Shown one piece after another: positions 31,934 to 57,389 of a stretch of DNA of 64,000 nt (positions are counted from its first letter, which is position 1; each line of letters begins with the position of its first letter). This stretch comes from an uncultured Chroococcidiopsis sp. GTDB taxonomy: Bacteria; Cyanobacteriota; Cyanobacteriia; Cyanobacteriales; Chroococcidiopsidaceae. The notes under the pieces are model-generated. The model saw only the letters and a program-made list of their open reading frames with translations. It searched no databases and was not told where the DNA came from. The DNA is taken from positions 86,492 through 150,491 of the forward strand of contig CAXTYC010000008.1 of assembly GCA_964248365.1 (NCBI GenBank), written 5' to 3'. The position numbers were made by a program, and so were the translations under genes.

Positions 31934-34471
31934 CTATTCAATTCGTACAAATTTACCACCTTGAATTTTAATTACTGCATCATTTTGTGCGAGAGACACT
32001 CTTTCTCCTGTACCGCTATCGAACCTAAATTTTCCAGTTGCACCATTAACTTCAAATTTAGGGTTTCTGAGTAAACTGTTTATCTCTTGACGATTTGGCT
32101 GTCGTAGTTGCTCTAAAGCAGTTGCGATCGCCTTTGTTGCATCATAAGCCATAGGCGATCGCCAGGTAATTGTTTTTGGATGCCAACTCGACTGAAACTT
32201 GCTGACAAAAGAATTTTTCTCTGCATTCGGATACCAGGGAACTGATAATGTTAAACCTTCTACTGCTTTCCCGCCTAACTCAATTGTTTTATTTGTATTT
32301 AGAGTAGGGCTACCAAACAGCCTCACTTGTAACTTATTGGAGCGCACTGCTTTGAATATTTCTGTTGCCTTGGCAATTCTATCGACATGAGGTGACATCA
32401 GCAAGGCATTAACACTGTTCTTTTTAATTTCCGCTACTACACTACTAGGTTTGAAATTTGGGTTGGAAAAGTCACAGTGTAAATCTATTGACTGTCCTTT
32501 ATCGGCTCTGAAAACTTGCTCAAATTGGTTTTTAAAGAATTCATTATCTGGTGCATCAGGATCTAAACAAATGCCAACTTTGGGATTAGGGACTTGATGG
32601 CGAATAAAATTTGATAGCTTCGCTGCAAAATAAGTAATCTGGGGAACCATCCTAAAAATATACGGCTTGTCTTGCAATTTGTCAGAAAAACTAGTCGGCG
32701 ATATCATTACTAGTTCTCTTTGGTTATATATGTCAGCAGCAGCAACCGAGGCATTCGAGGCATTATGCCCAACTACGGCTAAAATTGTGGTGTCTTTGAC
32801 AAATTTATCAGCAACTTTTCGAGCCAGAACGTCGTTGTTATTGTCATTGGCAATTACTACTTGTAATAGCTTGCCATTGATTCCATCATCGTCTTTAATT
32901 TCCTCTTGAAGTTGAGAAACAGGCTGTAACATCTCTTCTGCTACAGGTTGATTGCTACCAATAGGTACGCTAACCGCAATTTTTAAAGGTTCTTCTTTTC
33001 GAGTTGCTGCTATTGCATTGTTTAAATAAATTCGTGTTTCTGAATCGTTAGGGTTACGCTTGAGAGCAGCTTTGAAATTAGCGATCGCATTTGAATAATC
33101 TTGCTGTGCAAATGCTTTCACACCTGCTTCTTTCTCAGGGCTACTATTTTTAAATAGAACTTCTTCCCCCAAACTAATTCCAGGTGCAGATTCCGCCGCC
33201 CGATGAAATAAAGAATTATATATCCAGTAGGCAGCAGGTATTGATAGCACGGCAGCTGATAATATGATTAATAGCTTTACTTTTTGTGCAGTTGCAGGAT
33301 TTGGCAATGATTTAGTTGCTTTTGCTACTGGCTGCTGTGAAGGTTTTGCTTGAGGATAAAATAGCCCCTGTTCTTCGGGATTTTGGAAAAGCACAGGTAG
33401 CCAAGAGGCGTTAGGGGAGCGATTTTCGATTAACCTGAGCTTGTCACGGGCTTCACGCACTGCTTGATGTAAAGAAGCACCACCAGCAAAACAGGTGAGA
33501 AAATCATCTAAAAATTTTTGGGCGACGTTATCGTGAATCGGCTGCCGCATTACGATAACATGAGGAATCTGTAAAGAAGCTAGTTGTCGTGCCAATCCTA
33601 ACCCATCACAAGAGTTAAAAATTGCCAGTTTCAAACCATTTTCTACCGCTGTTTCTAGAGCAGTATTTAGTTGTTTAGGGGATAAATATTCTTGGTCATT
33701 GATCCAAATTCGTGCATTGTTACCTGCTGGTTCAGTTGCACTATGTCCGGCAAAGAAAACAATATCCCAAGGCTGACTCCTCAGTTTTTCTCTTAGCTCA
33801 GTTGCTCTAGGTTTTCGTAGCAGAACTAATTCGGCGAGTGGTAAATTCTTCTGGATAATGTTCCAGTCTGTTTCAATATCAATATGTTCATCGCTACCCA
33901 GAATTACTAGAAGTTTGACAGGTTCGCTCAGAGATCCTCTTGGTGGTACTCTAATGCTGCTCAGAGCAACTTCGGCATAACGATAGCGCTTTCTAAGTAA
34001 CCCCCATAACTCCCAAGGTATTTTTTGTAATTCTGAGTTTTCAGTTTCTATAATGAAGCTGACAGAATCATTTTTGCCCACTGTATGTAGCAATTCATCT
34101 CGTATATCCTTAATGGCAGAACGATCTAACCAGTCATTTAGGGCAAGCTCAAACTTGGGAGCAATTTTACTAGTATTATCCTCACTATCTCCACTTGAAT
34201 AATTTTTGATTATTTGGTTTGGAACACTAATTTGCCGAGTACTTTCCCGCCACCAGCGGCAGCTTTCTCCCCAAGATATGTGTTCTTCTAGCCAGTCATT
34301 CAAAAGTTTGACTATTTCTGGTGCTGGTGACAAACTACCCTTAACTTCTGAAACACAAAGCCGACCATTTTCTCTAATTTGTAATCTGACAGGAAAACCA
34401 TTCTCAAAATCACCGCCTCCAATTTGAAAAACAACTTGCTTGCTCCTTTCTACTAAGTTTTGGGCATTCAT
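31934..34471 (-). CDS. CHAT (caspase-like) protease - TM - TPR - LivJ-like periplasmic binding domain fusion
   Basis: FFAGHS and FNSCDG catalytic dyad; TM LLIILSAAVLSIPAAYWIY; GINGKLLQVVIAND, LAVVGHNAS, MISPTS, AYDAT. Confidence 0.9.
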   Translation of the reverse strand: MNAQNLVERSKQVVFQIGGGDFENGFPVRLQIRENGRLCVSEVKGSLSPAPEIVKLLNDWLEEHISWGESCRWWRESTRQISVPNQIIKNYSSGDSEDNTSKIAPKFELALNDWLDRSAIKDIRDELLHTVGKNDSVSFIIETENSELQKIPWELWGLLRKRYRYAEVALSSIRVPPRGSLSEPVKLLVILGSDEHIDIETDWNIIQKNLPLAELVLLRKPRATELREKLRSQPWDIVFFAGHSATEPAGNNARIWINDQEYLSPKQLNTALETAVENGLKLAIFNSCDGLGLARQLASLQIPHVIVMRQPIHDNVAQKFLDDFLTCFAGGASLHQAVREARDKLRLIENRSPNASWLPVLFQNPEEQGLFYPQAKPSQQPVAKATKSLPNPATAQKVKLLIILSAAVLSIPAAYWIYNSLFHRAAESAPGISLGEEVLFKNSSPEKEAGVKAFAQQDYSNAIANFKAALKRNPNDSETRIYLNNAIAATRKEEPLKIAVSVPIGSNQPVAEEMLQPVSQLQEEIKDDDGINGKLLQVVIANDNNNDVLARKVADKFVKDTTILAVVGHNASNASVAAADIYNQRELVMISPTSFSDKLQDKPYIFRMVPQITYFAAKLSNFIRHQVPNPKVGICLDPDAPDNEFFKNQFEQVFRADKGQSIDLHCDFSNPNFKPSSVVAEIKKNSVNALLMSPHVDRIAKATEIFKAVRSNKLQVRLFGSPTLNTNKTIELGGKAVEGLTLSVPWYPNAEKNSFVSKFQSSWHPKTITWRSPMAYDATKAIATALEQLRQPNRQEINSLLRNPKFEVNGATGKFRFDSGTGERVSLAQNDAVIKIQGGKFVRIE

Positions 34472-34575
34472 ATATGTCTTCCTTGGGGCGGTATAATCTT
34501 AAAATTTAAGTCAAAAAGAAGGAGCATAAATGAAAACTCAATAATTCTTTAACTGCTAGTTTCCACTAGCTAAAA

Positions 34576-35937
34576 TTAAACTATAAAGTATTCGGTAATA
34601 CTTGAAGAAGCCAGAACAAGACGAACACCAAAGCGATCGCCCACGTCAGCTCTAAAATAAAGAGAAATGTAATCGTCTTGTGGCTCATTTCTCGCTACAG
34701 CTTCCAACCCAGAAATGCTTGCGCCATTTTCATTTACTCCTAGTAATTGCAAAAGGGGTGGTAATTTAGTTTGGCTACCTGTAGGATAAGCTCTTAGCAA
34801 CACGCCAATTCGACTATCTGGTTTACGTAAAACTGCTACCATCAAAGCAACAGGATACCCCATTAGTTGAATTCCTAAATCCATCACTCTTCTAATAGCA
34901 GCATCGGGATGATGGGGATTGATCGCCCACAAATATTCAGCCGCCTGCCAACAAGTGGTATCATCTTCAGTTGTCTGCATTAGATGAACTAAGGCGGATT
35001 CTGGTTCAAAATTGGCAGGGAGAGCAACCATGTTTTGACTACTATACAACTGCGCGATCGCTCGTTTCACCAATTCTTGTGTATCCAATCTAATTCCTCT
35101 GACTTTTTTCGAGCGAACTGCTGGAGTTAGAGTCTTTGCATTCAACCAATTTTCGATTGTCTGCCAACCAGCTTCAACTACACCATCAAACCAAGCTCCC
35201 AGCCGCACTAATTGCGGTTGAACTCGTTCCATGCGCCGCTGGTATAATTTTTGTAACCATACTTGCCGATCTAGTAATGCTCCCCACTGCTCAAACTTCA
35301 CTTCTAGCCTGGGAGAATAGGACGATGGTTGGCTCAGTTGCTCAATTAAAGCTTTAGCATCATCATTTGACAACGAAGTTAATAAGGCTACTTCTCCTTT
35401 TTCATCAGGATAATCGAGTGCAACCCACAGCAAATCTAAGTTTGCAATTACGGCATCTTGCTCTACATAATAAGTATTCGCTGTCGCGTCATACTCACCT
35501 TTAGCTTTCAAACTGCGGCGAGAAACAAAGCCCCAAATATGCAGGTATTTCTCAGTAAGATCGAATTGTACGGGTAAATAATAATCTGCTGCCCAACTGG
35601 GTATATCTACCCATTCTTGAGGTACAGCAAAATCCTCGGTGTCTATAGCATCACTGGGAATCAGCACTAGTCGCTTTTGCTCTAGCTCAATTGCTATACC
35701 ATTTACTACTTCCCAAGCGATTTCACCTGGAAACAAAGTGAAATTAGCGGATAAACCGAAATCCTGTATCAATTTTACCAACAAATTAAAACACAAACGA
35801 GCAATTTTGGCATGATTGCGTCCAGTTTGGTTAGAGTAACTTCTGGTTGCAGCTTCAGCGATTTGCAAATCGCTGTCGGAAAATTCTAACCAAATGTGTT
35901 CAGAATAAATTTTGCGTAATATTTCTATCGACTTCAT
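34576..35937 (-). CDS. DUF1822-family protein (candidate anti-sigma/partner)
   Basis: WEVVNG..I....RLVLIP, VPQEWVDIPSWAADYYL, LGAWFDG...GWQ, DLGIQL, DRFGVRL...SITEYF. Confidence 0.85.
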   Translation of the reverse strand: MKSIEILRKIYSEHIWLEFSDSDLQIAEAATRSYSNQTGRNHAKIARLCFNLLVKLIQDFGLSANFTLFPGEIAWEVVNGIAIELEQKRLVLIPSDAIDTEDFAVPQEWVDIPSWAADYYLPVQFDLTEKYLHIWGFVSRRSLKAKGEYDATANTYYVEQDAVIANLDLLWVALDYPDEKGEVALLTSLSNDDAKALIEQLSQPSSYSPRLEVKFEQWGALLDRQVWLQKLYQRRMERVQPQLVRLGAWFDGVVEAGWQTIENWLNAKTLTPAVRSKKVRGIRLDTQELVKRAIAQLYSSQNMVALPANFEPESALVHLMQTTEDDTTCWQAAEYLWAINPHHPDAAIRRVMDLGIQLMGYPVALMVAVLRKPDSRIGVLLRAYPTGSQTKLPPLLQLLGVNENGASISGLEAVARNEPQDDYISLYFRADVGDRFGVRLVLASSSITEYFIV

Positions 35938-35949
35938 TGTATTTCCTGT

Positions 35950-37338
35950 TTAATCCAAATGTTGACTGAAAGAATGCATTCCAGATTCGTTTAACCTTTG
36001 TTCTACCAACATAGGAATTTTGGCGATCGCACATCCTTGTTGATCTAGTTTTAATTCAATGTGTTGCTCAATTTGTCTTGTTAGGCGATCGCACAAATAA
36101 ACGAGCGGTTCCCAAGGTGCAATTCGCATTTGTGGTAGTGAGTCTATTGATGAATCCCAAAATTTATCTATGATTTCGCTGCAATAACTACCTAGCAATG
36201 ATTCCATCTCTGATAAGCCTTCAGAACTCGGTTCAATATTTAGATTTTGTCTTACCCAATTCCAAATTTGAGGCAAGATTTTCTTGTATACCGATTGCAG
36301 ATGACGACAGATTTGATATTGCTTTAATCCTAGTTCAGTGGCAACTTCATTTTGTGTTAATTCCAAACCATAGCTAAGAAAAAGAATTTGGTATTTTTGC
36401 ACTGGCTGAATTTTTAGTTCATTTATCAGGCGCTCTATCTCCTGCTTCAATTCACCTAATTCTTCTATATCCATGCTCGATTCTGAGGAAGGCATTACAA
36501 AACTAGCATTTTCCTCACCGCGCTCAAGAGCAGCATCTAGAGAAGTAGTTTGTGGAGCTAATAATTCTCGAATTGCTGCTCCGATATTTTCTAGCCAAGT
36601 TTTGATCTGTTCTCCATTTATATTTTGTCCGTGTAATTGGTTGTAACGTTCAGCAATTTTCTGGTAATGTTCCACCAAAATATTATTTACCGCCAGATTG
36701 CTAGCATTTTTTACTTCTTGAAAACATTGCCAAGCCAGTAAATATTGAGATAATTGTAGCCCTCCGTAATTTGAATTTTGTATAGCTTCTTTTACTCGTT
36801 TGCGGCTGGCGCGTGCCACCAAAGCCAAGTTCGAGCGCCCCAAAGTTTCGATTTGGGTAATTTTTCTTACTTGGGTAAGTAAAAGATACTTAATTTTTTG
36901 CTCGGTAAACTTCTTTAACGTGGGATACCAATAGACAATTTGAGAACGCCTAATATCGAACTTAGCCAAAAATTTTTCCGGCTCGATTGTAGCTTGATAA
37001 CCTATGATAAATAAGTCAGAGAAACAATCAAACCGTAAATGATCGGGTAGTAGCCACATAATTTTGTTAGCTACTTTTTCACAGCTTCTTTGAAGAAAAG
37101 CAATCCAATGTCTACGGCATAATTCATCGGGGGGATGCTGCTGTAACTGCTCGAATAAATATCGAGCTAGTAATGCTTCTAGTCTCTGTTCATCTAATTG
37201 TGCTGATGGATCTATTTGAGTAGCGCAACGATTAATATGCTGTAATAACTGTTGGTCAACTCGCCAGATAATGCGACGATTTTCTATGCTGCTGGGTATG
37301 GTATAAAAGCACTCAAGGGGCATGGCGTGTGTAATCAA
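35950..37338 (-). CDS. Sigma-70-like (HetZ-related) RNA polymerase sigma factor / HTH regulator
   Basis: Region-4-like HTH ILFLSYGLELTQNEVATELGLKQYQICRHL; SLDA motif; YLLAWQCFQE. Alternative ATG at 37323. Confidence 0.75.
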   Translation of the reverse strand: MITHAMPLECFYTIPSSIENRRIIWRVDQQLLQHINRCATQIDPSAQLDEQRLEALLARYLFEQLQQHPPDELCRRHWIAFLQRSCEKVANKIMWLLPDHLRFDCFSDLFIIGYQATIEPEKFLAKFDIRRSQIVYWYPTLKKFTEQKIKYLLLTQVRKITQIETLGRSNLALVARASRKRVKEAIQNSNYGGLQLSQYLLAWQCFQEVKNASNLAVNNILVEHYQKIAERYNQLHGQNINGEQIKTWLENIGAAIRELLAPQTTSLDAALERGEENASFVMPSSESSMDIEELGELKQEIERLINELKIQPVQKYQILFLSYGLELTQNEVATELGLKQYQICRHLQSVYKKILPQIWNWVRQNLNIEPSSEGLSEMESLLGSYCSEIIDKFWDSSIDSLPQMRIAPWEPLVYLCDRLTRQIEQHIELKLDQQGCAIAKIPMLVEQRLNESGMHSFSQHLD

Positions 37339-37351
37339 AGAGTGGAGTTAA

Positions 37352-38734
37352 TTAATCTGCCGTAGGGAGCTTGACAAATTCGTAAACAGAGCCTTTAGAT
37401 TGAACTTGGACAATCACAGGCTGACCGATGCGATCGCCACTAGGTGAAAATCTAACCGCAACACCAGCTCCCTCAACTGCAAACTGGGGACTTCGCAACA
37501 CTTGCTCTAAACCATCACGAGTATTACTTTGCTGCAATCCTGCAATAATCGCTCTTGTTGCATCATAAGCCGTAGCCGAGCGCCAACTTACCTTACCGCG
37601 CCATCTTTGACTCATCTTGTCTGCAAAAGAATTGCGCGGATTAGCTTGGGGATGCCAAGGTGCAGCTAGCACTAATCCTTCAACACTTTGCTGCCCAAGT
37701 TGTAAGGTTTTAATGGTATACATTGTCGGGCTGCTAAATAGAGCTAATTTGCCCTGATTTTGATTTGCTCTTGCAAGATCGATCCCAGCTTGTAAGCGAT
37801 CGACATGAGGAGAGATAAATAACCCATCCGCACCACTGCTTACAGCTTGATTTACTGCCGTAAAAGCGTTAAAGTTAGGAGCAGATAAATCGCAAACGGT
37901 GGGGACTAATTGACCTCCCTTTGACACAAAAGCTGCCTGAAATTCATCTTTGAATGAGACATTATCTGGGGCTTGGGAATCGTAACAAAAAGCAATTTTG
38001 GTTTTATGGGCAGTTTTAACTGTATAGTTGGCTAACGCTGTTGCTGTTACTTTGGTAGTGAGAACAGTCCGAAAAATATAATTACCAATTCCAGAGAGAT
38101 TATTAGCAAAACTAGTAGGTGACACCATCACTAAACCCCCCTTTTGATAGATGGGAGCAGCCGCCAAAGATGCATCTGAGGCATTATGTCCTACAACTGC
38201 TAATACTTGCGAATCTTTAACTAATTGTTCGGCTACCTGACGGGCAATTTCAGGTTTATTTTCATCATTCACAATCTCTACAAGCAATTTTTGCCCATTG
38301 ATTCCACCCTGCTGGTTAATTTCATCCTGCGCCTGGGCGACACCTCGAAGGATTTCTTGAGCAACATTGAGGTTACTGCCGATTGGTACGCTTACAGCTA
38401 TTTTGAGAAAGCGATCGCCTACTTGGGCGTTATTTAAATAGATCAGTGTTTCGGGATCGTTAGGATACTGGAGGAGGGATTTTTTAAAATGTTCAATTGC
38501 CTCAGAGTGATCGCCCCCCGCAAATGCTTCAATTCCCTTTTGTTTGTCTGGTGTAGCATCTTTTTGGATTAATAAGCGATTACCGATACTGACGCGATCG
38601 CTACTACTAAATCTGTCTTTGTTAACACTTTCGCGCAGTTTTGGAACTAAGAAAATCAATAACAATCCCAGGCAGATGTAGACAATCGGAGGTAGTCCAC
38701 CTTTCTTAGTTTTTACATCATGTGGTTGCGACAT
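37352..38734 (-). CDS. Membrane-anchored LivJ-like (Venus-flytrap) substrate-binding protein with TPR
   Basis: N-terminal TM; PNDPETLIYLNNA, KIAVSVPIGSN, GGINGQKL, VVGHNAS, AYDAT. Confidence 0.88.
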   Translation of the reverse strand: MSQPHDVKTKKGGLPPIVYICLGLLLIFLVPKLRESVNKDRFSSSDRVSIGNRLLIQKDATPDKQKGIEAFAGGDHSEAIEHFKKSLLQYPNDPETLIYLNNAQVGDRFLKIAVSVPIGSNLNVAQEILRGVAQAQDEINQQGGINGQKLLVEIVNDENKPEIARQVAEQLVKDSQVLAVVGHNASDASLAAAPIYQKGGLVMVSPTSFANNLSGIGNYIFRTVLTTKVTATALANYTVKTAHKTKIAFCYDSQAPDNVSFKDEFQAAFVSKGGQLVPTVCDLSAPNFNAFTAVNQAVSSGADGLFISPHVDRLQAGIDLARANQNQGKLALFSSPTMYTIKTLQLGQQSVEGLVLAAPWHPQANPRNSFADKMSQRWRGKVSWRSATAYDATRAIIAGLQQSNTRDGLEQVLRSPQFAVEGAGVAVRFSPSGDRIGQPVIVQVQSKGSVYEFVKLPTAD

Positions 38735-50166: not shown

Positions 50167-51792
50167 TTATTGAGATCGTAAAACCTTCATATACGAGATT
50201 TTGTTGTCGATGTCGTTTCCCACGTAAGCGTATTCACCAGCCTTGAAAGTCCGGCATAAACCTTGTTGACTTTCATTTTCACAAACATACGCTGCTAAGC
50301 CTTGAGGTACGCGCATTGAGCTAATCGCGTCGTTGCCAACAATATTAAAAGCACCTTTATCAGCTCTATAGACACCTGGCGAAAGTGAGAAACTTTGGGA
50401 CACGCCACCAAAGTTGGGCTGACGATAAGCCACTACTTGCGCCGAGTTAGAACCACCTTTGGAACTAACAGACGTTGAGGCTCCGTTGGGTACTAGCTTG
50501 ATGATTAGTGGATGATCTGGTACAGAAACGGTCAGATCACTCAGGCGACCGCCACTAGGAGCATCGGATGTTAGGATAGGAGAAACCGAATTTTTCGGCA
50601 CGTAGACCTCTGCGTGATTGATGGAGGTTTGCAGATTGACTTTAATTTGTCGGTCTCCAACTGCAATATCTTTTTTGCTATCGTTATTCCAGCTATGTGC
50701 CTCTTGCCACAGGATGAGATAAAACTCTCCGTTGCTCTTTTGCAAGAGGGTGCTGTCAACACCGTCAGTATTGCCGCTCAGGGTATAGTCTAAGCTCTGG
50801 GGCGTAAAAATAGCTCCAGGCTCTTTCAACAACGAGGTCATGTTTTTAATTGCTGTATAAGCTGGTTTGGCAGAGCCATCGAAGTGTAGCAACCCATAGT
50901 TACCTTGGTCGCCAGCGCCGCTTGACTCATTAATGAACTCGTAAAGATAAGTCCGTGCGATGTTGCGGTTGAAGCTTTCTAGCAATAGCCTGGGTATGTA
51001 TTTGCCTGCTGCTTCCTCAGATACACCGAGGTCGTTAGATAGCTCATTGTGGTAGCCAGTTTCAGTTGCCCACTTGGTCATACTGTTACCGCACATCTTA
51101 TTGATATGAGGGATGAAATACGAATCGAGATCGATGGTAGGCGGCTGACCGATATTGGGATAGCTATGCATATTGCACAAATCGCCCAAATTGCCGATAT
51201 ATTCCATCTTGTCTGCATCCTCTCCCCACCCCATAGAAGGCAGTACAACTGATAGATTCTTGGTGGCAGAATTGCCCTTGATAGTGTTGTACAAATCCTT
51301 TTGGTAGTTGCGAGTACCATCTGGGAATTTTTGACCGTTGTACGAAAAATTGAAAACATCTAAATCAGACTCGTTCGGACCTTCTACTGCGTCTATCCCT
51401 CCTGTCATTGAATTGACAACAGATGAAACTTCATCCATCGAATTGCCGGAGAAGATGATGTCAGACTTAATCCCAATAGAGCCTAGCTTTTTGATCTTGT
51501 TAAAGAAATTAGGGTCGTTGTAGCCACCGTCACGGATGTGACGAATACCCAGTTCTTGCAATTTGGGAATAATTAGGTCGTCAAATCGCTCATAAGGAGT
51601 GCCACCATAAGTTAGATGGGTATTTACCCCGATGCTATCCACAAAAGCATCAGCACTTTTAGCAGGTTGTGGAGCTGCCCAGGCTATATTGAATTTTTGG
51701 TTTATTATTGGTAATATAGTGCTACTTACTAACGTGGCAGTGAAAACTGCTAGGTGAAATGATGCGCGTTGTGATTTATTGTGTAATTTCAC
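50167..51792 (-). CDS. Secreted clan GH-A-like glycoside hydrolase with C-terminal beta/gamma-crystallin domain
   Basis: Signal peptide; FVDSIGVNTH, EGPNE, WATETGY, YGLL..DG..KPAY; C-terminal Y..PNFGG, NDAISS, DNKISY. Confidence 0.72.
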   Translation of the reverse strand: MKLHNKSQRASFHLAVFTATLVSSTILPIINQKFNIAWAAPQPAKSADAFVDSIGVNTHLTYGGTPYERFDDLIIPKLQELGIRHIRDGGYNDPNFFNKIKKLGSIGIKSDIIFSGNSMDEVSSVVNSMTGGIDAVEGPNESDLDVFNFSYNGQKFPDGTRNYQKDLYNTIKGNSATKNLSVVLPSMGWGEDADKMEYIGNLGDLCNMHSYPNIGQPPTIDLDSYFIPHINKMCGNSMTKWATETGYHNELSNDLGVSEEAAGKYIPRLLLESFNRNIARTYLYEFINESSGAGDQGNYGLLHFDGSAKPAYTAIKNMTSLLKEPGAIFTPQSLDYTLSGNTDGVDSTLLQKSNGEFYLILWQEAHSWNNDSKKDIAVGDRQIKVNLQTSINHAEVYVPKNSVSPILTSDAPSGGRLSDLTVSVPDHPLIIKLVPNGASTSVSSKGGSNSAQVVAYRQPNFGGVSQSFSLSPGVYRADKGAFNIVGNDAISSMRVPQGLAAYVCENESQQGLCRTFKAGEYAYVGNDIDNKISYMKVLRSQ

Positions 51793-52688: not shown

Positions 52689-55523
52689 TTACAAAGGCTG
52701 TAACTGCGATCCGATTAGCGTACCCGCAGCCTCGCTTTCTACTGGCTTCGAGAAAAAGTAACCCTGCCCATATTCGCATTTGAGCGTGTTAAGCCGAGCC
52801 AGTTGCCCTGCTGTTTCTACCCCTGCTACAGTCAGATCCATATTTAGGTTGTGGGCGATCGCCATAATAGTCTGTAGAATTTCTAAACTCTCTTCATCGC
52901 GATCAATCTGACTTACAAGCGAGCGATCGACATTTAACAAGTTGAAGTGTTCGTAACACATACGACTTGGTAGGCGTTGTATCAGGCTAAGGAATGAATA
53001 GCCTATACCCAGGTTATCAACCTGCAACTGAACACCCAATGCTTTTAGTTGCAAAAGTTTTTCATTTGCCAAGTCAATATTTTGCAAAATTACATTCTCA
53101 GGAATCTCTAGTCTGAGACTACAAGCATTCAACTCAGCTTCTGACAAAGCTTGCTCAATTCGCTGGCATAGAAGAGGTTGGTAAAACTGTTTACTTGAGA
53201 GATTGACACTAATTGTCAAAGGCGCTGGGGAAAATTGTTCCTGCCATTGACGCATTTGACGGCAAGCCTTGCGCAACGCCCACCAGCCAATAGGGACAAT
53301 TAAACCAGTTTCTTCAAGTAGTGGCATAAACTCTGCTGGCGACACTATACCCCGTGTCGGGTGCTGCCAACGCAAGAGAGCTTCAAAACCAATGATTTTA
53401 TTAGTTTGTAAAACTACAATCGGTTGGTAGTGAATTTGAAACTCCTGACGCTCAAACGCCTGCTTTAAGTCCGTATCCAATGGCGATGGCACTAACTCAA
53501 TTGTATTTATAGGCGTATCTAGTATATTTGTACGTCTTGCTCCTGGCATTGAGTAATCTGTTGCTATGGCGTTTTTTGCCTTTAATTCTTTTACTTGTGC
53601 ATCAGCCTGGGTAGATTTAGGTGTGTATTCAGGCACTAGCTGCTGTAGTAAAAAGACGATCAAATTTGGGTCATTTTGCCGTGCTGCTTCACAAAGGGCT
53701 TCTACTAAAGAATTAAGAGTTTTTGGAACAATACTACTGGCGTTTTTGAGAATCATAATTTTTTTATGCTCAGTAGGTCCATATTCCTCACCTGGAATAA
53801 ATAATTCTTCGTATAGCTTTTCTCCAGGTCTTAGCCCTGTAAATTGAATTTTAATGTCTTTGTCTACTTCGTACCCAGACAGGCGAATCAAATCCTTTGC
53901 CAGGTCAACGATTTTCACTGGCTGTCCCATATCCAGCATTAATATCTCGCCACCACGCCCAAGTACAGCAGACTGTAAAACGAGTTGAACTGCTTCAGGA
54001 ATAGTCATGAAGTAGCGACAAATATCAGGATGAGTGACACTGATAGGTCCACCCTGAGCAATTTGTTGTTTGAATGTGGGGACAACACTGCCTCTACTTC
54101 CCAGAACGTTGCCAAATCGTACTACGACAAAAGGCTTACCACTCTTTTTAGCTGCTTGCAGCACTAGCATTTCGGCAGTTCTTTTACTTGCTCCCATGAT
54201 ATTGGTAGGATTTACTGCCTTGTCTGTGGAAATCATGACAAAGTGATTCACATCATATCGCAAGGCAAGATCGAGCAGATTTTTTGTGCCTAAAACATTA
54301 TTGGTAATCGCCTCTGGTGAATTTGCTTCCATTAGCGGTACGTGCTTATGAGCCGCCGCATGGAAAATGATATCAGGTCGGAAAGTGTTAAAAGCGTACT
54401 CTAGTCGTGATGGAAATCGAATATCGGCTATGAAGCAAGCTAGGCGGGGCATATATCCTTCGACTGCCCCATCTTGTCTAAGTGTCTCCAAAACTCGCTC
54501 TAGCTCTTGTTGGATACCAAAGACTGAGTTTTCACCGTGTCCTATAAGCATGATTTCGGCAGGGCGAGACTTGAAAACTTGGCGACACAGTTCACTACCA
54601 ATTGATCCTCCTGCGCCTGTGATCAGTACCTTTTTGCCCATTAAAAATTTGGATACACTTTGGACATCGGTTTGTATCGGTTCCCGTCGCAATAGATCTT
54701 CTATTTTGATGTCTCGAATGCTTTCTATGCCTACGCGACCATTGACTATTTCATTAAATCCAGGTAGGGTACTGGTACGAGTGCCAACGGATTGACAAAT
54801 GTCTAAAATGTCCCGCATTACTTTTCCGGTAACACTCGGCATGGCAATAATGACGCGGTTGATATCTAGCGATCGCACATATTTGGGAATACTCAAGCGA
54901 TCCCCCACTACAGGTACGCCACGAATGTATAGTTTTAATTTAGCTGGGTCATCGTCGATGAAAGCGATCGGGTAAAGCCCTAGCTTCGGATCGTGTTGCA
55001 TCTGTTGTACCAAATTTACACCCGCATTCCCTGCACCTACGATCAGTACGCGCTCACCATGAGTAGAATTTTTCTGCTTTTGACTGACTCTTTCGACCGC
55101 ACGTATACTAAAACGTAAACCGCCGACAAAGAGCAAGCTAAGTATCCCATCTACCAGTGGTAGACTTCGCGGTAGAAATTGGTCTGCACCAAACAAGTGA
55201 TTGCGTGCATATACAAATATAGTTTCCAACACTATCACAGCCGCTGCTAGCATACTCATTTGAGTTAGTTCATCGATGCTGGCGTAACGCCAGTATCGTC
55301 TGTAAAATCCAAACCCATAAAGTACGCTCAGTTTTAATACCAGGAATATTGTTGTAACGATAAGTAGGTGAAATCCATATGTATGAACTATATGGAAAAT
55401 ATTGAACCTATCTAATCGCAAGGCAAGCGCCACTGTAGGTGTGAGCAAAAAGGCGATCGCATCAATGACAATGAAATGTCTATTCCTTAGTTTTAATAAA
55501 GTTTTGGATATTGTGTCTATCAT
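52689..55523 (-). CDS. CapD/PglF-type nucleotide-sugar 4,6-dehydratase fused to a C-terminal EAL domain
   Basis: Four N-terminal TMs, GAGNAG, GAGGSIGSE, HAAAHKHVP, STDKAV, MGASK, RFGNVLGSRGSV, GLRPGEKLYEEL; then HYQPIV..FEALLRWQHP..QGYFFSKP. Confidence 0.9.
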   Translation of the reverse strand: MIDTISKTLLKLRNRHFIVIDAIAFLLTPTVALALRLDRFNIFHIVHTYGFHLLIVTTIFLVLKLSVLYGFGFYRRYWRYASIDELTQMSMLAAAVIVLETIFVYARNHLFGADQFLPRSLPLVDGILSLLFVGGLRFSIRAVERVSQKQKNSTHGERVLIVGAGNAGVNLVQQMQHDPKLGLYPIAFIDDDPAKLKLYIRGVPVVGDRLSIPKYVRSLDINRVIIAMPSVTGKVMRDILDICQSVGTRTSTLPGFNEIVNGRVGIESIRDIKIEDLLRREPIQTDVQSVSKFLMGKKVLITGAGGSIGSELCRQVFKSRPAEIMLIGHGENSVFGIQQELERVLETLRQDGAVEGYMPRLACFIADIRFPSRLEYAFNTFRPDIIFHAAAHKHVPLMEANSPEAITNNVLGTKNLLDLALRYDVNHFVMISTDKAVNPTNIMGASKRTAEMLVLQAAKKSGKPFVVVRFGNVLGSRGSVVPTFKQQIAQGGPISVTHPDICRYFMTIPEAVQLVLQSAVLGRGGEILMLDMGQPVKIVDLAKDLIRLSGYEVDKDIKIQFTGLRPGEKLYEELFIPGEEYGPTEHKKIMILKNASSIVPKTLNSLVEALCEAARQNDPNLIVFLLQQLVPEYTPKSTQADAQVKELKAKNAIATDYSMPGARRTNILDTPINTIELVPSPLDTDLKQAFERQEFQIHYQPIVVLQTNKIIGFEALLRWQHPTRGIVSPAEFMPLLEETGLIVPIGWWALRKACRQMRQWQEQFSPAPLTISVNLSSKQFYQPLLCQRIEQALSEAELNACSLRLEIPENVILQNIDLANEKLLQLKALGVQLQVDNLGIGYSFLSLIQRLPSRMCYEHFNLLNVDRSLVSQIDRDEESLEILQTIMAIAHNLNMDLTVAGVETAGQLARLNTLKCEYGQGYFFSKPVESEAAGTLIGSQLQPL

Positions 55524-55923: not shown

Positions 55924-55966
55924 TTTTCACATGATTTTCACATGAGTTTCACAGGATTTTTACACA
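55924..55966. promoter_or_regulatory. Four direct repeats with 11-bp period (TTTTCACATGA-like) upstream of the CapD-EAL gene
   Basis: TTTTCACATGA TTTTCACATGA GTTTCACAGGA TTTTTACACA. Confidence 0.55.
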
Positions 55967-56420: not shown

Positions 56421-57389
56421 GTGCAGATTACATTTTTAGGGACAAGTTCTGGTGTACCGACGCGATCGCGCAATGTTTCTAGCGTCGCTCTGCGTTTGCC
56501 GCAACGGGCAGAGATATGGTTATTTGACTGCGGTGAAGGAACCCAGCATCAAATTTTGCGGAGCGATCTGAAAATTAGTCAAATCACCCGCATCTTTATC
56601 ACCCATATGCATGGCGATCATGTATTCGGTTTGATGGGGCTTTTAGCTACCTGCGGTTTAGCTGGTAATCCCCACCGAATCGATATTTATGGTCCACCTA
56701 AGCTGGATGAATATCTTCGTGCCTGTAGCCGTTATTCTCAAAGCCATTTGTCCTATCCACTACAAGTTCACACTATACAGCCAGGTGTAGTCTACGAAGA
56801 CGAAGAATTTACAGTTAGCTGTGAGCGATTAGAGCATCGTGTGACTGCCTTTGGCTACCGAGTAGCAGAACTCGACCGTCCAGGGCGCTTTGATGTCGAG
56901 AAAGCTAAGGCGTTGCAAATTCCTCCAGGCAGAGTATACGGTCAGCTAAAGCGGGGTGAAACAGTAACGCTAAACGATGGACGAGTAATTAACGGATCTT
57001 CTTTGTGTGGACCTACCGAAAGGGGGCGATCGCTGGCATACTGCACTGACACAATTTATACCGAAAGCGCGGTATCCCTAGCACAGGATGTAGATGTGTT
57101 AATACACGAAGCGACTTTCTCTCATCAGGATGCTGAACTTGCTTTTCAACGAATGCATTCCACCTCAACAATGGCGGCGCAAGTAGCGTTAGCTGCAAAA
57201 GCGAAGCTGCTGATTATGACTCATTTCAGTCCGCGTTATGCGCCTGGAAATGACATAGAGTTACAGCATCTACTTGAAGAAGCTCGTGCTATTTTCCCCA
57301 ATACACAGATGGCTTACGACTTTTTGACTTATGAAATACCCAGACGCAGGGAACTAGTAGCTAGCGGAACCAGTGGAACCAGTGGCTAG
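56421..57389 (+). CDS. rnz: Ribonuclease Z
   Basis: [39 protein letters not shown]. Confidence 0.96.

Follow-up and report, generated by a model that had tools for sequence, protein, structure and literature searches.

The 64-kb stretch of DNA from an uncultured Chroococcidiopsis analysed here (the window, to the whole of which all positions refer) carries on its reverse strand a capD/pglF-EAL fusion gene. Its 947-residue product P0001, whose numbering is used throughout, joins a membrane-anchored sugar-nucleotide dehydratase to a degenerate EAL domain, a candidate receptor of c-di-GMP (cyclic dimeric guanosine monophosphate). A preliminary description of this DNA had recognised a complete membrane-bound dehydratase running in frame into an EAL domain, and the Pfam matches agree: one open reading frame spans CoA_binding_3 (residues 74-248), Polysacc_synt_2 (302-596; E value 2e-115) and EAL (688-930; E 7.5e-65). 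The gene end that it had set at 55523 has to be moved, this being the second in-frame ATG (Met4), and the full frame reaches 55532. An AlphaFold2 model built from an alignment of 117 homologues (mean predicted local distance difference test score, pLDDT, 79.5; a single-sequence prediction with pLDDT 37 was set aside) resolves into four helices at the N-terminus, two Rossmann-type domains, an EAL barrel and, at 640-683, a stretch without order; three stretches of the N-terminal membrane region pass the hydropathy threshold. When the genome was searched by tblastn with residues 1-640 this was the sole PglF/CapD-type gene found, the only other match being a weak one of 25%.

All of the 120 best matches in a protein search (query included; 8000 candidates scored) span both domains, at 54-83% identity. 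The dehydratase motifs GAGGSIG 306, HKHVP 395, T436-D437-K438, M446, K450 and GNV 474 are invariant in these 120 proteins, with G306, G308, G309, I311 and G312 of the NAD-binding GxGGxIG each present in 120/120. A T-D-K triad and M-x3-K stand in place of Y-x3-K, and T436, D437, K438, M446 and K450 align with PglF, whose variants at T395, D396, K397 and M405 are named in PDB titles. Foldseek matches the model to PglF 5bju (template modelling score, TM, 0.93; 43% identity), and both the N-terminal membrane domain and the extra Rossmann-like domain of the PglF/CapD type are found. P0001, whose catalytic motifs are intact, is predicted to be a membrane-anchored PglF/CapD-type UDP-N-acetylglucosamine (UDP-GlcNAc) 4,6-dehydratase. 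It has in common with PglF of Campylobacter jejuni, EpsC of Bacillus subtilis and the CapD-WbpM type (PF02719) its membrane helices, its pair of Rossmann-type domains and the T-D-K and M-x3-K residues, whereas the C-terminal EAL is an addition absent from the solved relatives among the PDB matches listed.

State of the EAL domain

The EAL motifs quoted in the preliminary description are all present: EALLR at 717, SVNLS at 775, EIPE at 809-812, DNLGIGYS at 839, LNVDRS at 866, AGVET at 903 and QGY at 923. Residues were mapped by alignment to TBD1265 (2r6o), with MorA also aligned; N840 takes the place of the second Asp in DDFGTG, N867 that of the conserved Lys and A903 that of the first Glu in EGVE. 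Some deviations that had been counted as catalytic losses proved to be otherwise. EIPE is no such loss because both of its glutamates, E809 and E812, are kept, and the loss of the Lys is real in P0001 but not family-wide: position 867 is Lys in 103 of the 120 proteins and Asn or Ser in all seven genomes checked of the window's genus, the only one among the genomes checked in which the Lys is missing. The losses of the second Asp and of the catalytic Glu extend to the whole family, Asp at 840 occurring in 0/120 (with N, H, Q, R or K instead) and Glu at 903 in 0/120 (mostly T or A, with D in two homologues). P0072 and P0079, a fused sister pair of the Nostocales group, show another variant of the pocket, with Lys at position 777 and Asp at 903. 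Kept in the 120 proteins are Q703, E717 and R721 (120 each), E809, E906 and Q923 (119 each), D839 (118), N777 (117), E812 (116), D869 (114) and K867 (103). The sites mapped include Q372 in the RocR numbering.

The roles of these residues rest on secondary papers, and sources marked 'in part' here and below are cited from the portions of their text available to us. For RocR, seven catalytic residues (E175, N233, E265, E268, D295, K316, E352) and four positions of c-di-GMP recognition (Q161, R179, D296, D318) are given in PMC2952852 (in part), and the E355 site is taken from PMC12943098 (in part). Of the seven residues of active phosphodiesterases the family retains six and P0001 five, A903 standing for E352 and N867 for K316, and loop 6 reads DNLGIGYSF in place of DDFG(T/A)GYSS. 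Three of the four recognition positions are kept (in 120, 120 and 114 of 120) and the D296 equivalent is absent in all; the four-residue rule is not strict, because FimX binds c-di-GMP with fewer conserved residues. The second Asp ligates metal 2 (PMC5301497, in part), and in TBD1265 the E703A exchange abolished activity, the first Glu of ExxE being essential there (PMC12943098, in part).

Forty control EAL domains, taken as the best scorers to the fused family and not drawn at random, seven of them from the window's genome, are canonical at all 13 sites (40/40). All 40, together with the four PDB alignments shown, have a gap where the fused family carries an insertion of 6-7 residues after loop 6, and the fused family has conserved residues of its own, Q837 and L872. 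In 51 representatives sharing less than 80% identity, whose EALs are on average 52% identical, the 11 kept pocket positions have a mean conservation of 0.96, versus 0.60 for random polar columns, and 0 of 100,000 draws came as high. By Foldseek the EAL part matches the c-di-GMP complex of TBD1265 (3n3t) with a TM of 0.90, and its identity to seven of the genome's own eight EALs is 45-56%. Pooled over seven close pairs, the ratio of nonsynonymous to synonymous substitution rates (dN/dS) comes to 0.18 in the EAL and 0.10 in the catalytic domain, with 0.22 in the membrane part and 0.58 in the linker; the EAL of the window compared with that of its nearest relative gives 0.12. These ratios point to purifying selection maintaining the EAL, which in all probability derives from an ordinary active phosphodiesterase domain. 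The earlier view of a domain degenerate as an enzyme is upheld, in that the residues predict it to be catalytically dead; the first-metal and the phosphate/base contacts of its pocket are kept.

Features of the fusion gene and its divergent neighbour in the window
Feature	Position	Strand	Basis
capD/pglF-EAL fusion gene P0001, 947 residues	52689..55532	-	single unbroken open reading frame; Pfam
N-terminal membrane region, four helices (~17-153)	55074..55484	-	model helices 17-40, 45-73, 86-114, 124-153
First Rossmann-like domain (~160-290)	54663..55055	-	Pfam CoA_binding_3; PDB 3nkl match 160-287
Catalytic 4,6-dehydratase domain (~300-600), predicted	53733..54635	-	Pfam Polysacc_synt_2; PglF 5bju E 3.7e-86
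Disordered variable linker (640-683)	53484..53615	-	pLDDT <50; dN/dS 0.58
Degenerate EAL domain (688-930)	52743..53471	-	Pfam EAL; 3n3t TM 0.90; dN/dS 0.18
EALLR motif (E717, R721)	53370..53384	-	invariant, each 120/120
D839-N840, loop 6	53013..53018	-	D at 839 in 118/120; D at 840 in 0/120
Family-specific insertion of 6-7 residues after loop 6 (~855-862)	52947..52970	-	gap in control EALs
N867, conserved Lys position	52932..52934	-	K in 103/120; N or S in the window's genus
A903, catalytic Glu position (RocR E352, TBD1265 E703)	52824..52826	-	E in 0/120; 2r6o alignment
rnz (RNase Z), divergent neighbour	56421..57389	+	NCBIfam; same neighbour in five genus relatives and L079

Distribution, history and gene neighbourhood

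Those best matches that bear names come from cyanobacteria (Microcoleus, Gloeocapsa, Gloeocapsopsis, Merismopedia, Moorena, Phormidium, Pleurocapsales). Among the best 150 of a profile search against 50%-identity representatives, five full-length proteins and two fragments have both domains, and the EALs of these fusions place in the same clade as the other fused EALs. Within the window's order the CapD clade is present in 80 of 401 genomes; judged by open-frame length, 53 of the 80 have a fusion-sized gene (at least 880 residues, the EAL having been checked directly in part of the 53 and inferred in the rest), three an intermediate and 23 an unfused one, and one gene is cut by a contig end. 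The preliminary description would have fallen with a fusion unique to this assembly; all the best matches and most of the clade's genomes have it. So widespread an occurrence also rules out an assembly artefact or a chance read-through, and the fusion is real, old and selectively maintained. One fusion gene (L016/L092; G009:C14:61017-63774) is broken near residue 276 into frames of 270 and 673 residues, through either a real frameshift or an assembly error.

In a quick tree of 53 rows, which omitted one long-branch EAL of the window's own genome, the fused EALs group as a single clade apart from 40 others (Shimodaira-Hasegawa-like approximate likelihood ratio test, SH-aLRT, 99); with that long-branch EAL included the clade has an SH-aLRT of 98 over 46 rows. 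On a CapD tree from which near-duplicate rows and most outgroups were dropped, the fused/unfused label switches nine times, six or seven of them forced by well-supported branches, and the basal protein is unfused. All 15 members of family group f7 (Nostocales genera) are unfused. Three genomes of two genus groups (L152, L153, L154) encode a CapD with an internally deleted EAL remnant of about 130 residues, devoid of YQP and EALxR, and here the loss of the domain is caught midway. The single origin of the fused EALs and these remnants suggest one gain of the fusion and about eight losses, the Nostocales among them, a count that is only approximate because the root lies on long branches and the trees are quick ones. 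A split fused-type EAL was not seen in 19 genomes with an unfused CapD, where the best EALs fetched were canonical, in a search whose divergent positive control scored below canonical EALs.

In the window the fusion gene is an orphan beside rnz, as it is in five genus relatives; rnz marks a conserved chromosomal site and is outside the fusion system. Among 20 fused loci the gene comes first in a flippase/glycosyltransferase operon in 13, has only a divergent wzc in one, is an orphan in five and lies at a contig edge in one, with wzc adjoining it in six. Glycan genes are found downstream in 16 of 17 unfused loci of the clade. One locus, L079, still combines the rnz context with the operon, an arrangement suggesting relocation of the operon in the window's genus. 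The matching operon of the window's genome lies on a separate contig, C32, and encodes a DUF4874/4832 protein, a MurJ-like flippase, five glycosyltransferase family 4 (GT4) enzymes, an epimerase, a Wzc-like kinase and a Wzy_C protein, for which polymerase is only the likelier assignment since Wzy_C also covers ligases. It also encodes a small phosphoglycosyl transferase with PglC as its best PDB match (E 6e-68, versus 2e-39 for WbaP), a FemAB/GNAT-like protein that may be the N-acyltransferase, and a DegT aminotransferase whose best PDB matches, 1o61 and 4ztc, we take to be PglE. P0001 would act for this operon, because it is the only candidate dehydratase in the genome. Two C32 proteins of 314 and 430 residues (L117:15910-16851 and L118:6028-7317, genome G000) match nothing in Pfam or NCBIfam at the thresholds applied; the larger sits before wzc, at the expected place of an export protein.

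A Microcoleus-type locus, L120, holds the full set of dehydratase, DegT aminotransferase, PglD-type acetyltransferase (PglD_N; TIGR03570 above cut-off) and small PglC-like transferase. The same gene set makes and transfers di-N-acetylbacillosamine in the extracellular polysaccharide of B. subtilis and in C. jejuni, EpsC/N/M/L and PglF/E/D/C being the corresponding partners (PMC10653937, in part). From those systems the window's genus differs in keeping the gene apart from the operon and in having the FemAB/GNAT-like protein of C32 where the Microcoleus-type locus has a PglD-type acetyltransferase. The role at the first step of polysaccharide precursor supply, as originally put forward, fits this gene neighbourhood, by which the dehydratase belongs to the priming step of a Wzx/Wzy-type polysaccharide, probably with a bacillosamine-type sugar. 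At three Microcoleus-type loci (L087, L089, L090) a 1140-residue PAS/GAF histidine kinase with an ethylene-receptor-like N-terminus adjoins wzc and the fusion gene.

Other features of the window can be noted briefly. A local operon of the fusion gene with the neighbouring glycoside-hydrolase-like gene at 50167-51792 (reverse strand) is not supported, this gene having no counterpart in 40 fetched loci; its 541-residue product has a signal-like N-terminus, no Pfam match, and ESM Atlas look-alikes of the cellulase/GH39/GH42 type of glycoside hydrolase. The reverse strand at 31937-38734 encodes a CHAT plus periplasmic-binding protein, a DUF1822 protein, a sigma-70-like protein and a second periplasmic-binding protein. 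Three TGTGAAA direct repeats with 11-base spacing (55925-55960, reverse strand) lie about 400-430 bases upstream of the fusion gene and may serve a transcription factor as a site; three genus relatives partly keep a related block. Neither the window nor three related loci gave an Rfam match to a c-di-GMP riboswitch.

A candidate c-di-GMP switch on the priming-sugar enzyme

We propose that P0001 would produce UDP-4-keto-6-deoxy-GlcNAc, to be converted by an aminotransferase of the DegT family, an acyltransferase and a phosphoglycosyl transferase like PglC into the bacillosamine-type priming sugar of a flippase/Wzy/Wzc surface polysaccharide. The EAL would bind c-di-GMP and leave it uncleaved and, in what is the weakest step of the proposal, would alter the activity of its own dehydratase by ligand-dependent dimerisation or by docking over the flexible linker. 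The LapD EAL dimerises upon binding c-di-GMP (PMC3032553, in part), and a similar switch could act over the linker of P0001. FimX keeps four of ten catalytic residues and still binds the ligand (PMC3527489). The repeated clean losses of the EAL suggest a brake on an enzyme that can function without it; our guess is that c-di-GMP releases this brake, and the direction could be the opposite. Over all the readings that need it, binding of c-di-GMP by the EAL seems to us probable, and we hold in even balance the narrower proposal that the EAL is a receptor gating the priming-sugar step through its own enzyme.

Several observations weigh against such a switch. The conservation average of the pocket omitted the two lost positions, 840 and 903, and H724, Q759, Q764 and Q910, outside the pocket list, are equally conserved, so that part of the signal may be structural. 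The window's genus has also shed Lys 867 and no longer has the gene in its operon. Losses of the EAL recur on the CapD tree, and 26 of the 80 clade members are devoid of a whole EAL, many of them in genomes rich in GGDEF domains, so its loss does not track the loss of signalling. The window's genome itself has 10 GGDEF domains, and in favour of the switch the 48 fusion genomes tested all have at least four GGDEF matches, a weak test as 73 of 74 genomes have cyclases; the five genomes with 0-2 matches are all unfused, and a link between EAL loss and cyclase loss is not supported, many unfused genomes holding 10-35. The linker of 44 residues is disordered in the model, offers no helical relay and has a near-neutral dN/dS, features as compatible with a tethered or scaffolding module as with classical allostery.

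That long disordered linker would equally suit an EAL that binds c-di-GMP and directs its output to partners (the priming transferase, Wzc or a diguanylate cyclase), which it would recruit or position at the membrane while the rate of the dehydratase stays unchanged. The family-specific surface insertion and the conserved Q837 and L872 could make a new interface, and FimX, which undergoes no large change on binding, is thought to signal via partners (PMC3032553, in part). We consider this unlikely, if by no means negligible: the same gene clusters occur in fused and unfused operons, with no partner gene peculiar to the fused form, and action on the enzyme to which the EAL is joined is the simpler reading of a cis fusion kept in at least seven family groups. 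Rather less probable is a pocket kept for another ligand, such as pGpG, another cyclic dinucleotide or acetyl-CoA, or a module that dimerises independently of any ligand. The FimX EAL does bind pGpG (PMC3527489), a 2026 preprint (10.64898/2026.06.11.731730, in part) reports inhibition of purified RocR by acetyl-CoA and its docking in the pocket of the EAL, acetyl-CoA being used also by the downstream acetyltransferase of such pathways (PMC10653937, in part), and the second Asp of the recognition set is gone. Set against this, the kept residues are the canonical c-di-GMP and first-metal set with hardly any drift, and cyclases accompany the fusion in every genome tested, with the weakness already stated.

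An active phosphodiesterase is rejected on residues, the second Asp and the catalytic Glu being absent. A very slow phosphodiesterase, or a trigger enzyme sensing c-di-GMP through turnover, could appeal to the six of seven catalytic residues kept by the family (five in P0001; PMC2952852, in part), to trace activity reported for the far more degenerate FimX EAL (PMC3527489) and to the Asp at 903 in two homologues; we judge it quite improbable, as the catalytic Glu whose loss killed TBD1265 activity (PMC12943098, in part) is missing in 120/120, the ligand of metal 2 (PMC5301497, in part) is gone and loop 6 has drifted freely. The most improbable reading is that of a functionless relic on its way out. 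It would account for the eight or so losses and degradations on the tree and for the internally deleted remnant in three genomes, but Q703, E717 and R721 are invariant over the 51 representatives, and a neutral relic is rejected on the dN/dS values (0.18 pooled, 0.12 against the nearest relative) and largely refuted by the selection pattern.

The proposed receptor has parallels in LapD of Pseudomonas fluorescens and FimX of P. aeruginosa and Xanthomonas, likewise with a degenerate EAL in which loop 6 has drifted and the Arg following the EAL motif persists (PMC3032553, in part; PMC3527489). As in degenerate receptors, P0001 combines an EAL barrel (TM 0.90 to 3n3t) with residue losses that predict the loss of catalysis. 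Those are GGDEF-EAL signalling proteins that act on protease or pilus machinery; the EAL of P0001, in contrast, has no GGDEF partner, is joined to a metabolic enzyme, resembles active EALs much more closely and is of separate origin. Streptomyces GlgX, to our knowledge, has no dedicated EAL receptor domain. Like P0001 in the proposal, it is a carbohydrate enzyme under direct c-di-GMP allostery, but in glycogen breakdown (PMC9530166, in part). Post-translational control of matrix polysaccharide by c-di-GMP is known from the PilZ domains of BcsA/XcsA and from Alg44, PelD, PgaCD and BcsE (PMC10519070, in part); these act at the synthase or export step, whereas P0001 would act at nucleotide-sugar supply in a Wzy-type pathway, and in the main text of that review, as far as available, 'dehydratase' and 'UDP' are not mentioned.

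Modules of other kinds have been joined to the same enzyme family. In Nitrospirota, a different phylum, a putative c-di-GMP-binding MshEN module, of a different fold, is inserted between the Rossmann domains of CapD and not appended like the EAL. CapD occurs in 81 of 201 genomes of the phylum of locus L073; 38 CapD loci fetched there yielded 33 parsable proteins, two of which match a relaxed MshEN pattern (PMC5013675, in part) between the Rossmann domains and a third of which has a tandem MshEN motif by eye. All three come from eight loci chosen for split matches or long frames. At L202, L203 and L204 the Rossmann domains of CapD are separated by this tandem MshEN-type insert. A C-terminal receiver domain is present in three other CapD proteins (L207:949-3933, reverse strand; P0287; P0301), L207 being a transferase-CapD-receiver triple fusion and P0287 and P0301 single-member clusters. 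Signalling modules have therefore been joined to CapD in three ways at the least; this supports the idea of a regulated step but does not prove that the EAL binds c-di-GMP. Tentatively, with confidence just short of even, we suggest a cis allosteric c-di-GMP switch on a nucleotide-sugar enzyme that would gate the Wzy-type priming sugar in Microcoleus, Chroococcidiopsis, Gloeocapsa, Moorena and Pleurocapsales, the PglF/CapD step being, with the independent MshEN and receiver fusions elsewhere, a repeatedly evolved and so far undescribed checkpoint.

Implications for cyanobacterial polysaccharide synthesis

Our literature searches, which left most subscription papers outside, found no paper on a CapD-EAL fusion, and automatic Joint Genome Institute (JGI) names already list both domains. 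Term searches did not find it in the available parts of PMC10124867, PMC10519070, PMC3747582, PMC7063779, PMC13492106, PMC6717892 and PMC5013675, or in supplements (10 of 17 files for PMC2952852), and the architecture may already stand in an existing census. The fusion would be a variant form of degenerate-EAL receptor joined to a known enzyme family, so far with no description found. Few c-di-GMP receptors are known in cyanobacteria: a 2023 review names the cellulose synthase XcsA, the MshEN-bearing PilB and CdgR (PMC10124867, in part), ComFB is a further one, and in the parts of these sources available none of the four ties c-di-GMP to a Wzy-type polysaccharide.

The fusion family offers a concrete, soluble and assayable candidate c-di-GMP receptor in these cyanobacterial genera, with natural EAL-less orthologues and remnants as ready controls. 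The genera carrying it build soil crusts and survive desiccation through extracellular polysaccharide. If the proposal is true, a dead EAL would regulate an enzyme in its own chain, control would be exerted at precursor supply, where UDP-GlcNAc is common to cell-wall synthesis, and the biofilm signal c-di-GMP would act directly on the start of surface polysaccharide synthesis.

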